Virus record (IMG/VR): IMGVR_UViG_2711768072_000011
DNA length: 15,159 bases
Reading direction: 5' to 3' (one strand)
Source of the DNA: a virus
Taxonomy: Duplodnaviria; Heunggongvirae; Uroviricota; Caudoviricetes
Positions 2,874-15,159 of the stretch are shown in pieces. The notes below the pieces were generated by a model that made no database searches, was not told the origin of the DNA, and saw only the letters and a list, made by a program, of their open reading frames with translations. Position 1 is the first letter of the stretch. Every line of letters begins with the position of its first letter. Position numbers and translations under genes: made by a program.

Positions 2874-3566
2874 TGGGCGCTGCTTCGCAGACAGGCAGAA
2901 CTTGATGGTATGCCTGCGATCAATGCCAAACGTGTTTACCGGATCATGCGCCAGAATGCGCTGTTGCTTGAGCGAAAACCTGCTGTACCGCCATCGAAAC
3001 GGGCACATACAGGCAGAGTGGCTGTGAAAGAAAGTAATCAGCGATGGTGCTCTGACGGGTTCGAGTTCCGCTGTGATAACGGAGAAAAACTGCGAGTCAC
3101 GTTCGCGCTGGACTGCTGTGACCGTGAGGCACTGCACTGGGCGGTCACTACGGGCGGCTTCAACAGTGAAACAGTACAGGACGTCATGCTGGGAGCGGTG
3201 GAACGCCGCTTCGGCAACGAGCTTCCGGCGTCTCCAGTAGAGTGGCTGACGGATAATGGTTCATGCTACCGGGCTAATGAAACACGGCAGTTTGCCCGGA
3301 TGTTGGGGCTTGAACCGAAGAGCACGGCGGTGCGGAGTCCGGAGAGTAACGGCATAGCAGAGAGCTTCGTGAAAACGATAAAGCGTGACTACATCAGTGT
3401 CATGCCCAAACCAGACGGGTTAACGGCAGCAAAGAACCTTGCAGAGGCGTTCGAGCATTATAACGAATGGCATCCGCATAGTGCACTGGGTTATCGCTCG
3501 CCACGGGAATATCTACGGCAGCAAGCCAGTAATGGGTTAAGTGATAACAGGTGTCTGGAAATATAG
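2868..3566 (+). pseudogene. insD: Truncated IS2 transposase InsD (OrfB), N-terminal part missing
   Basis: The frame is continuous from the gam/IS2 junction through the listed 2910..3566 ORF. The Met at 2910 is internal to InsD and not a real start. The expected upstream insC and frameshift window are absent. Confidence 0.8.
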
Positions 3567-3577
3567 GGGCAAATCCA
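2868..3577 (+). mobile_element. Partial IS2 (right-hand ~0.7 kb: 3' part of insD plus right terminal repeat); left half including insC is missing
   Basis: Plus-strand translation from the junction reads ...[47 protein letters not shown]... to ...[11 protein letters not shown], the C-terminal ~230 residues of IS2 InsD. The sequence then ends in ...TAGGGGCAAATCCA, which I recall as the IS2 right terminus, directly followed by emrE-internal sequence. Confidence 0.85.
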
Positions 3578-6067: not shown

Positions 6068-6619
6068 ATGAAAACACTTATCGTTTCAACTGTATTGGCA
6101 TTCATAACATTTTCTGCGCAGGCTGCAGCATTTCAGGTCACTAGTAATGAAATAAAAACAGGAGAGCAACTTACAACGTCTCATGTCTTTTCTGGATTTG
6201 GGTGTGAAGGTGGTAATACATCGCCCTCATTAACCTGGTCTGGTGTTCCTGAAGGTACCAAAAGCTTTGCCGTAACTGTATATGATCCAGATGCACCTAC
6301 AGGCAGTGGTTGGTGGCATTGGACTGTTGTTAATATTCCAGCAACAGTAACATATTTGCCCGTTGATGCAGGGAGACGTGATGGAACAAAACTGCCGACT
6401 GGTGCTGTTCAAGGCCGAAATGATTTTGGCTATGCTGGGTTTGGTGGCGCATGTCCTCCTAAAGGAGATAAACCACATCATTACCAGTTTAAAGTATGGG
6501 CTCTAAAAACTGAAAAGATTCCTGTAGATTCTAACTCCAGCGGAGCGTTAGTTGGTTATATGCTTAATGCTAATAAAATCGCAACCGCTGAGATAACACC
6601 AGTTTATGAGATAAAGTAG
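6068..6619 (+). CDS. ybcL: Periplasmic PEBP/RKIP-family (UPF0098) protein with signal peptide, 183 aa
   Basis: N-terminal signal peptide (MKTLIVSTVLAFITFSAQA) and conserved PEBP-like segments (DPDAP...WWHW...GACPPKGDKPHHYQF). Matches DLP12 YbcL in length and sequence as I recall it. Confidence 0.85.
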   Translation: MKTLIVSTVLAFITFSAQAAAFQVTSNEIKTGEQLTTSHVFSGFGCEGGNTSPSLTWSGVPEGTKSFAVTVYDPDAPTGSGWWHWTVVNIPATVTYLPVDAGRRDGTKLPTGAVQGRNDFGYAGFGGACPPKGDKPHHYQFKVWALKTEKIPVDSNSSGALVGYMLNANKIATAEITPVYEIK

Positions 6620-9703: not shown

Positions 9704-10801
9704 TTAGAACTGGTAAACCAGACCTACAGCAACGATGTCATCAGTGCTTACACCGAGTGCTTTAGTGAAGTCATTTTTGTCAAGCAGGTTGATTTTGTAA
9801 TCAACGAAAGTAGACATATTTTTGTTGAAGTAATAGGTTGCACCTACATCAACATATTTGACTAAGTCCTGATCGCCCCATACTCCAAGATCTTTACCTT
9901 TAGATTGCAGGTAAGCAACGGACGGACGCAGACCGAAATCGAACTGATATTGTGCAACAGCTTCGAAGTTTTGGGCTTTATTAGCAACGAAGTGATCAGC
10001 AAATACAGTCATATTCTGGGTTTCAGAATAGGTAGTGGCCAGGTAAATGTTGTTAGCGTCATATTTCAGACCTGCGGCCCAAACTTCTGCATTTTTACCG
10101 GAAGCAAATACTTCAGGAAGAACTTTCCCTGCATTAACTTGAGTGTCGGTACGATCAGATTTCGCATAAGTTGCACCGATACCGAATCCTTCGTATTCAT
10201 AGGTAGCAGAGAAACCGAAGCCATCACCGTTACCTTCAGTGTAGTTATCGAAATCGCTACGATCGTTTTTGCCTTGGTACTGAGCAGCAAAGTTCAGACC
10301 ATCAACCAGACCAAAGAAGTCGTTGTTACGATAGGTTGCAACACCAGTGGTGCGACCAGTCATGAACACATCTGTTTGGGTCCAGGTATCGCCACCGAAT
10401 TCTGGCAGAACGTCAGTCCACGCACCGATGTCGTATGCTACACCGTAGTTACGGCCGTAATCGATTGAGCCGTAGTCACCGAATTTCAGGCCTGCAAATG
10501 CAAGACGGGTTTTGTCTTTGGAGGAACCTTGAGATTCAGCGCGGTTGCCTTTGAATTCATATTCCCACTGACCGAAACCAGTCAGTTGATCGTTGATTTG
10601 GGTTTCACCTTTGAAGCCAAGACGGGCATAAGTAGTATCACCATCATCTGCATCATTAGAGGAGAAGTAGTGCTTGGCATTAACTTTCCCGTACAGATCC
10701 AGCTTGTTACTGTCTTTATTATAAATTTCAGCTGCCTGAGCAGACATCGCCATCAGTACTGATGCAGCTACAGCAGAAATTGCCACTGTTAATTTTTTCA
10801 T
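9704..10801 (-). CDS. nmpC: OmpC/PhoE-family general porin (NmpC / Lc-type), 365 aa, apparently intact
   Basis: Signal peptide [23 protein letters not shown] followed by porin motifs, ending in the C-terminal ...VGLVYQF beta-signal. Full-length ORF with no IS interruption, located antisense between Q and the lysis genes. Confidence 0.9.
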
Positions 10802-13589: not shown

Positions 13590-13830
13590 ATGATAATTAT
13601 TATCATTTTGCGGGTCCTTTCCGGCGATCCGACAGGTTACGGGGCGGCGACCTCTCGGGTTTTCGCTATTTATGAAAATTTTCCGGTTTAAGGCATTTCC
13701 GTTCTTCTTCGTTGTAACTTAATGTTTTTATTTAAAATACCCCCTGAAAAGAAAGGAAACGACAGGTGCTGAAAACGGGCTTTTTGGCCTCTGTCGTTTC
13801 CTTTCTCTGTTTTTGTCCGTGGAATGAACA
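13590..13830 (+). other. Lambda-type cos site (cosQ-cosN-cosB); predicted 12-nt cohesive end GGGCGGCGACCT at 13642-13653
   Basis: Sequence ...GATAATTATTATCATTTTGCGGGTCCTTTCCGGCGATCCGACAGGTTACGGGGCGGCGACCTCTCGGGTTTTCGCTATTTATGAAAATTTTCCGG... is nearly identical to the lambda right-end/left-end junction as I recall it, immediately upstream of the Nu1 homologue. Confidence 0.8.
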
Positions 13831-14376
13831 ATGGAAGTCAACAAAAAGCAGCTGGCTGACATTTTCGGTGCGAGTATCCGTACCATTCAGAACTGGCAGG
13901 AACAGGGAATGCCCGTTCTGCGAGGCGGTGGCAAGGGTAATGAGGTGCTTTATGACTCTGCCGCCGTTATAAGATGGTATGCCGAAAGGGATGCTGAAAT
14001 TGAGAACGAAAAGCTGCGCCGGGAAGTTGAAGAACTGCGGCAGGCCAGCGAGGCAGATCTCCAGCCAGGGACTATTGAGTACGAACGCCATCGACTTACG
14101 CGTGCGCAGGCCGACGCACAGGAGCTGAAAAATGCCAGAGACTCCGCTGAAGTGGTGGAAACCGCATTCTGTACTTTCGTGCTGTCGCGGATCGCAGGTG
14201 AAATTGCCAGTATTCTCGACGGGATCCCCCTGTCGGTGCAGCGGCGTTTTCCGGAACTGGAAAACCGACATGTTGATTTCCTGAAACGGGATATCATCAA
14301 AGCCATGAACAAAGCAGCCGCGCTGGATGAACTGATACCGGGGTTGCTGAGTGAATATATCGAACAGTCAGGTTAA
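13831..14376 (+). CDS. nohD: Terminase small subunit (lambda Nu1 homologue), 181 aa
   Basis: Translation MEVNKKQLADIFGASIRTIQNWQEQGMPVLRGGGKGNEVLYDSAAVIRWYAERDAEIENEKLRREVEELRQ... is essentially lambda gpNu1 (winged-helix N-terminus). Follows cos. Confidence 0.9.
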   Translation: MEVNKKQLADIFGASIRTIQNWQEQGMPVLRGGGKGNEVLYDSAAVIRWYAERDAEIENEKLRREVEELRQASEADLQPGTIEYERHRLTRAQADAQELKNARDSAEVVETAFCTFVLSRIAGEIASILDGIPLSVQRRFPELENRHVDFLKRDIIKAMNKAAALDELIPGLLSEYIEQSG

Positions 14377-15159
14377 CAGGCTGCGGCATTTTGTCCGCGC
14401 CGGGCTTCGCTCACTGTTCAGGCCGGAGCCACAGACCGCCGTTGAATGGGCGGATGCCAATTACTATCTCCCGAAAGAATCCGCATACCAGGAAGGGCGC
14501 TGGGAAACACTGCCCTTTCAGCGGGCCATCATGAATGCGATGGGCAGCGACTACATCCGTGAGGTGAATGTGGTGAAGTCTGCCCGTGTCGGTTATTCCA
14601 AAATGCTGTTGGGTGTTTATGCCTACTTCATAGAGCATAAGCAGCGCAACACCCTTATCTGGTTGCCGACGGATGGTGATGCCGAGAACTTTATGAAAAC
14701 CCACGTTGAGCCGACTATTCGTGATATTCCGTCGCTGCTGGCGCTGGCCCCGTGGTATGGCAAAAAGCACCGGGATAACACGCTCACCATGAAGCGTTTC
14801 ACAAAGCGTATTGAAGGCTCGGTCTGGCCAAAGTCCATCCGTGGCTCCACGCCCAAAGTGAGAGGCACCTGTCAGATTGAGCGTGCAGCCAGTGAATCCC
14901 CGCATTTTATGCGTTTTCATGTTGCCTGCCCGCACTGCGGGGAGGAGCAGTACCTTAAATTTGGCGATAAAGAGACGCCGTTTGGCCTCAAATGGACGCC
15001 GGATGATCCCTCCAGCGTGTTTTATCTCTGCGAACATAATGCCTGCGTCATCCGCCAGCAGGAGCTGGACTTCACTGATGCCCGTTATATCTGCGAAAAG
15101 ACCGGGATCTGGACCCGTGATGGCATTCTCTGGTTTTCGTCATCCGGTGAAGAGATTGA
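14351..15159 (+). CDS. Terminase large subunit (lambda gpA-like), 5' part; the frame stays open to the window edge but appears to carry a ~47-codon in-frame deletion
   Basis: GTG start overlaps the Nu1 3' end. Translation MNISNSQVNRLRHFVRAGLRSLFRPEPQTAVEWADANYYLPKESAYQEGRWETLPFQRAIMNAMGSDYIREVNVVKSARVGYS... matches gpA including the Walker A-like KSARVGYS. After ...TLTMKRFT the sequence jumps to KRIEGSVWPKSIRGSTPKVRG..., skipping the segment that in lambda gpA (from memory) contains the Walker B/E179 region. No stop codon in frame within the window; not listed in the ORF track because it runs off the end. Confidence 0.75.
   Translation, partial: MNISNSQVNRLRHFVRAGLRSLFRPEPQTAVEWADANYYLPKESAYQEGRWETLPFQRAIMNAMGSDYIREVNVVKSARVGYSKMLLGVYAYFIEHKQRNTLIWLPTDGDAENFMKTHVEPTIRDIPSLLALAPWYGKKHRDNTLTMKRFTKRIEGSVWPKSIRGSTPKVRGTCQIERAASESPHFMRFHVACPHCGEEQYLKFGDKETPFGLKWTPDDPSSVFYLCEHNACVIRQQELDFTDARYICEKTGIWTRDGILWFSSSGEEI

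Follow-up and report, generated by a model that had tools for sequence, protein, structure and literature searches.

The gene considered here compares most directly with the large terminase subunit of phage lambda (gpA, or TerL; PF05876 GpA_ATPase and PF20454 GpA_nuclease). In lambda TerL, Ortiz et al. 2018 assigned Walker B to VAGYD and the role of catalytic carboxylate to Glu179 (PMC6379665). All 11 of the 11 substitutions tested at position 179 were lethal, and nonconservative changes there abolished both ATP hydrolysis and translocation; E179A and E179Q still folded, assembled into protomers and tetramers, and cut cos but were dead for ATP hydrolysis and packaging (PMC6379665). A second relative is the aaaD pseudogene of the Escherichia coli K-12 prophage DLP12, likewise a lambda-type A remnant lying after nohD in a defective, argU-site prophage. 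Whereas K-12 aaaD consists of a 309-bp N-terminal stump attached to tail fiber genes, the A gene described here runs in frame for at least 269 codons and lacks an internal segment.

The sequence analyzed, here called the window, is the whole 15,159-bp contig CYGB01000065.1 from the draft E. coli assembly GCA_001285165.1, and its features are collected in Table 1. As in lambda, the A gene starts with a GTG that overlaps the 3′ end of Nu1 and has cos and Nu1 upstream. No stop codon interrupts its frame before the window runs out, at the equivalent of lambda residue 316. The reason is that the window is a complete draft contig terminating within A: the contig end cuts the gene 352 bp past the deletion junction, and the remaining 325 of 641 codons, including those for the nuclease domain and the portal-binding tail, lie outside it. 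The database entry for the product, WP_072174228.1, bears the name [quoted passage not shown] No paper mentioning the assembly accession was found.

Table 1. Features of the 15,159-bp window discussed in the text
Feature	Position	Strand	Details
IS2 right-hand remnant	2879..3577	+	~700 bp; IS end TAGGGGCAAATCCA at 3564-3577
Heptamer GGGTCCT, presumed cosQ	13612..13618	+	exact string; same in lambda alignment
cosN	13637..13658	+	12-nt cohesive end GGGCGGCGACCT at 13642-13653; G-to-T at 13655
cosB	13692..13806	+	R3-like GGCATTTCCGTTCTTC at 13692-13707; AT-rich IHF-site region; R2/R1 pair
R2/R1 inverted pair	13750-13775 / 13781-13806		26-nt inverted repeat, 85% complementary
Small terminase subunit gene Nu1 / nohD	13831..14376	+	181 aa, intact
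Large terminase subunit gene A	14351..15159	+	first 269 codons; open frame, ends at contig edge
Walker A / P-loop codons K76-SARVGYS-83	14576..14599	+	kept; motif per PMC6379665 Table 1
Deletion junction in A	14802..14804	+	141 bp (codons 152-198) gone between C14802 and A14804
Junction-spanning sequence			TTTCACAAAGCGT

In a BLASTP comparison of the window protein with lambda gpA, 269 of 269 aligned residues are identical (100% over residues 1-151 and 199-316), and the alignment is interrupted by one 47-residue gap corresponding exactly to lambda residues 152-198, NGRGFWCLGGKAAKNYREKSVDVAGYDELAAFDDDIEQEGSPTFLGD. At the DNA level, the 141 bp absent from the window are present in lambda, in phage PhiR26_1, and in the EC11 and JNE141411 prophages. 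A 1570-bp query from the window spans 1710-1712 bp in every match listed, both from phages (30/30) and from E. coli (40/40).

The lost segment contains the Walker B motif VAGYD (174-178) and the catalytic Glu179, and other functional positions remain. The Walker A residues K76-SARVGYS-83 are the same as in lambda and Tyr46 is kept, as is IRGSTPK at window residues 163-169, which includes lambda GST 212-214 and is invariant in the homologue alignment; we take G212-S-T214 to be the C (coupling) motif. The window protein still matches PF05876 GpA_ATPase with 133 bits (cut-off, 25.6), in two stretches, the earlier one running over profile positions 3-112 of 247; for lambda gpA the match to the same profile is a single stretch, positions 3-237. 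Segment 152-198 is kept by 23 of 23 homologues, down to 54% identity, and the window protein alone is without it. Across those homologues, 23 residues of the segment are nearly invariant, among them Y177, D178, and E179. A preliminary description of this DNA, made from its letters, had proposed an in-frame loss of 141 bp removing about 47 gpA residues after residue ~151, VDVAGYDE with E179 among them, and leaving a Walker A-like KSARVGYS at 76-83. The alignments bear this out in size, position, and content, and against both lambda and all 23 homologues they give a gap instead of colinearity. By its sequence, then, the window A gene is a gpA homologue by descent and not a functional member of the family.

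Since Glu179 is catalytic and every substitution tested there is lethal, loss of the packaging ATPase follows, as the preliminary description had anticipated. From the published E179 data, we predict that packaging ATPase activity and DNA translocation are lost and, at the level of the module, that cutting at cos and DNA packaging are lost as well. No sequence match to gpA was found in the PDB, and AlphaFold models were therefore built. The intact N-terminal domain was modeled with a pLDDT of 75.8 and a pTM of 0.78, and its best PDB match is the ATPase domain of T4 gp17 (2o0j; E = 1.4e-5); it also matches the large terminases of P74-26 and HK97 with weak E-values (0.03 and 0.07). Its strands lie at residues 71-76, 101-105, 147-149, 155-160, 174-177, and 208-213, and the pair at 155-160 and 174-177 falls inside the deleted interval. 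In this model, the deletion thus takes two core β-strands of the ASCE ATPase fold, one of which carries Walker B. In the model of the deleted form, no strand forms ahead of residue 187, and pLDDT falls below 50 at residues 77-80 (the P-loop), 100-108, and 139-170. Judging from these predictions, the ATPase domain of the deleted protein probably does not fold. The window allele shares with the lambda TerL E179 mutants the loss of the catalytic carboxylate; unlike E179A and E179Q, which keep fold, assembly, and cos cleavage (PMC6379665), it probably has its domain fold destroyed.

The gene sits in an element that was already damaged. The argU/intD-adjacent prophage of strain JNE141411 matches 95% of the contig at 98.7% identity, and the contig’s gene order follows that of K-12 DLP12, running through exo, bet, emrE, ybcK, ybcL, ybcM, ybcN, ninE, ybcO, and rusA and then quuD, the porin gene, essD, rrrD, rzpD, bor/iss, ylcI, nohD, and A. 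With argU and int themselves beyond the contig, it is gene order and the match to JNE141411 that identify the element as a DLP12-type cryptic lambdoid prophage of E. coli. Relative to JNE141411, an IS2 remnant (TnpB by NCBIfam, profile positions 84-301 of 301; E = 7e-153) stands in for ~4.86 kb of prophage DNA comprising the 5′ part of gam, kil, the repressor and cro-like genes, O, P, and ren, together with the first ~86 nt of emrE. The resulting IS2-emrE junction was found in none of the complete genomes. This IS2-associated deletion took the immunity, N, O, and P region, so that the prophage could already neither regulate nor replicate itself, in keeping with the earlier suspicion of a decaying prophage. 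Because such a prophage cannot make phage anyway, we infer that the terminase lesion is a neutral step of prophage decay.

Upstream of Nu1 and A, by comparison, the module is well preserved. The heptamer that we take to be cosQ, the cohesive end, the R3-like repeat, the IHF region, and the R2/R1 pair are all colinear with lambda, the names R3, R2, and R1 being our presumed assignments of the cosB repeats. Nu1 is identical to lambda gpNu1 at 179 of 181 residues, differing by K48R and L132I, and matches Pfam Phage_Nu1 over its full length (335 bits; profile positions 1-164 of 164).

The deletion endpoints constrain how the lesion arose. Reading left to right, the junction consists of AAGCGT (14792-14797), TTCAC (14798-14802), a single A (14803), and a second AAGCGT (14804-14809), so that codon 151 reads ACA (Thr) and codon 152 is AAG, the equivalent of lambda K199. 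In the four relatives aligned, Thr151 is encoded by ACT or ACC and Asp198 by GAC, so that neither flank supplies a template for A14803; the right-flank match never runs past AAGCGT in any record of the E. coli and phage collections. The event can be described either as a 141-bp deletion with a substitution or as a 142-bp deletion with one inserted base. A parent allele that would template the junction base, with codon 151 as ACA or codon 198 as GAA, was sought in the E. coli and phage collections, and none was found.

Short AAGCGT repeats had been suggested to flank the deletion. They are indeed present near the junction, but simple slippage between them is rejected as the mechanism: both copies are kept, their spacing in the intact gene is 153 bp and not the 141 bp lost, and no repeat of ≥7 nt was found at the deletion endpoints. 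The joining instead looks illegitimate and essentially without homology. The silent change from ACT or ACC to ACA and the kept frame are also what would be expected under selection for a translatable product, a point against the reading that we favor below.

We then asked how widespread the allele is. Scans for the junction gave 0 matches in 5,426 complete E. coli genomes and 0 in 50,697 phage records, and exact scans gave 0 in GTDB genomes (one per species), IMG/VR, and JGI metagenomes. The deleted protein forms a singleton cluster among ~15 billion proteins. A protein search with 60 aa centered on the junction returned short proteins only, the window’s own product not being returned either, and an exact look-up of the 208-aa antisense open reading frame across the junction found nothing. 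The junction is known from one draft contig, with no second assembly showing it, which also counts against the favored reading.

The surrounding gene pair is common by comparison. The assembly collection has the exact Nu1 protein in 8,446 blocks, and at 8 of the 10 places shown a 641-residue A comes next. Of the other two, one has a 994-residue in-frame A-J fusion after Nu1 (L008) and one has no called A gene there (L015). Protein searches recovered further broken versions of A, including frameshifted alleles (P0073, P0074, and P0084), other in-frame internal deletions (P0080 and P0087/P0093), and fusions to capsid, protease, tail fiber, and J genes (P0005, P0083, P0085, and again L008). These are independent lesions of the same gene in nearly identical backgrounds; none has the 151|199 junction, and most lose far more sequence. 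On the sequences compared, the window allele is unique, yet the kind of event that it represents is routine prophage decay. The event also appears to be recent, since the DNA flanking the deletion is 99.4-99.5% identical to intact prophage genes and no amino acid change has accumulated.

The explanation that best fits these observations, to which we would give a probability of roughly 0.8, is a recent, strain-private inactivating deletion in an already defective prophage, in frame by chance. One illegitimate-recombination event would have taken out the 141 bp without useful homology, leaving one odd base, and the reading frame would have been kept by luck, for which the prior is one in three. 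On this reading, the lesion is a single, ordinary instance of loss of function and not a new system.

The same contig would result if the strain carried an intact A, perhaps in two or more lambdoid copies, and contig ends had been misjoined during assembly or gap closing with 141 bp dropped. We consider this unlikely. The draft contig does stop inside A, which is what colliding prophage copies would produce, and the region is often multicopy in E. coli, occurring in up to 8 places per genome; however, the contig is without N, and because no repeat longer than 6 nt joins the endpoints, a k-mer graph would have no path across them unless the reads held the junction. Several details at the gap could betray a misjoin between alleles: its left edge is a polymorphic wobble site (ACT versus ACC), several sites that vary between prophage alleles lie inside or adjoin it, and the junction base fits neither flank. 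Against these stand a gap that is an exact multiple of three and perfect sequence on either side of it. That neither junction nor protein occurs elsewhere in the collections searched would likewise suit an artefact, but the contig bears a second private lesion, at IS2-emrE, which argues that its lineage is simply unrepresented in the reference collections.

A very improbable reading is that the in-frame allele has been kept because it is useful, truncated gpA acting as a dominant-negative defense against packaging by superinfecting lambda-type phages. Under an equally improbable version of the mechanism, the Q protein of an incoming phage would turn on the cryptic late operon, and gpA without Walker B would act as a decoy that titrates gpNu1 or stalls the terminase ring. 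The N-terminal region of gpA, its first 151 residues, interacts with gpNu1. These residues are 100% identical to lambda in the window and the frame is kept, but a random deletion has one chance in three of being in frame anyway. The neighboring Nu1 and cos are intact; expression is nonetheless doubtful in a prophage without its early regulatory region, and the C-terminal half of the gene is beyond the contig end. Mixed rings are conceivable, given that E179A and E179Q assemble normally though dead (PMC6379665), but AlphaFold predicts loss of the whole ATPase sheet and not a tidy dead enzyme. A search of the literature on dominant-negative lambda gpA found none. A dominant-negative terminase had been offered in the preliminary description beside a neutral remnant; that proposal has nothing here to support it, as the allele is a singleton that neither recurs nor spreads, shows no sign of having been selected, and is modeled without a formed ATPase sheet.

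A functional, naturally short terminase with its Walker B and catalytic residues elsewhere is effectively refuted, since it has an open reading frame and nothing more in its favor, while the segment with D178-E179 is kept throughout the homologues, every intact A beside the same Nu1 protein in the places shown is 641 aa, tested changes at E179 are lethal (PMC6379665), and the model of the deleted form offers no other acidic pair after a hydrophobic strand.

Read as a private inactivating deletion, the allele is of little consequence outside annotation. WP_072174228.1 is labeled just “partial”; it is internally deleted and, by prediction, catalytically dead, and is best handled as a pseudogene. 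The locus offers a clean natural case of lambdoid prophage decay in which a small illegitimate deletion comes atop IS-mediated loss, and, should the strain be available, its natural Walker B deletion could be used to ask whether dead TerL subunits disturb lambda-type packaging. Were the decoy mechanism true, a dead prophage would gain a superinfection-interference function; were the junction an artefact, it would serve as a warning over draft contigs whose ends fall in multicopy prophage genes.

One departure from lambda in the cos region deserves mention. The preliminary description had called cos and Nu1 intact and nearly identical to lambda, which holds for Nu1 and for the recognizability of every cos element but has to be amended for cosN, where a G14T change at 13655 corresponds to lambda position 14, two bp right of the cohesive-end sequence. 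Feiss and colleagues reported that mutations in cosN’s right half, at bp 7-12, have minimal effect (PMC4669245), and by analogy with these G14T is probably benign. Position 14 sits just beyond the bp 7-12 range of that study. We had considered G14T as a private, cos-killing mutation and rejected this, as the change is not private: an exact 50-mer match places it in 227 complete E. coli genomes and in no record of the phage collection. One of the carriers, strain 120899, has an IS66 element splitting its A gene.

Deletions within the lambda-type large terminase gene A are not confined to the allele in the window. Among the A-related proteins of E. coli prophages returned by protein search, we recognized four distinct deletion or fusion alleles (P0080, P0085, P0087/P0093, and P0088) that share a break directly after FDED186 and that are joined on the right to different partners, either a later part of A or a tail-fibre gene. 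Among the sequences fetched, three of the partners could be traced in undeleted sequence, and in each an Asp lies just before the join. This suggests that the site may be a deletion hot spot, with breaks arising via microhomology at GAT-GAG/GAT-GAT codons. At one of the places where the exact Nu1 protein of the window occurs (L008), the N terminus of A continues in frame into the tail-tip protein J; this fusion is a single-step deletion of the entire head and tail-shaft region that kept the reading frame open.

Features of the window and of the L008 locus, with coordinates
Feature	Location	Strand	Remarks
IS2 right-hand remnant	window 2879-3577		~700 bp; TnpB profile positions 84-301 of 301
IS2 end	window 3564-3577		TAGGGGCAAATCCA
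ybcL	window 6068-6619	plus	183 aa, intact
Prophage porin gene, OmpC/NmpC-like	window 9704-10801	minus	365 aa, intact
G-to-T change, cosN right half	window 13655 (lambda position 14)		two bp right of cohesive-end sequence
Antisense ORF inside A	window 14411-15037	minus	208 codons; spans deletion junction
A N terminus fused in frame to J	L008 10521-13505 (GCA_042139115.1)		994 residues

The antisense ORF was listed among the called genes of the contig; it had no Pfam match and is almost certainly spurious. An exact look-up of its product returned nothing. The exact 50-mer carrying the change in the cos nicking region (cosN) was present in 227 complete E. coli genomes and absent from the phage records; an IS66 element splits A in strain 120899, one of the carriers.

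Comparison with the related argU prophage of E. coli JNE141411 indicated that the IS2 remnant replaces ~4.86 kb of prophage DNA, comprising the 5′ part of gam, kil, the immunity genes, O, P, ren, and the first ~86 nt of emrE. The prophage is therefore without an immunity or replication region, and emrE is truncated. A scan of 5,426 complete genomes gave no match to the IS2-emrE junction.

Relative to DLP12 of K-12, the window lacks ybcV and ybcW, as does JNE141411. Its ybcL is intact, whereas that of JNE141411 has an internal stop, and its porin gene is likewise intact, in contrast to K-12 nmpC, which is split by IS5.
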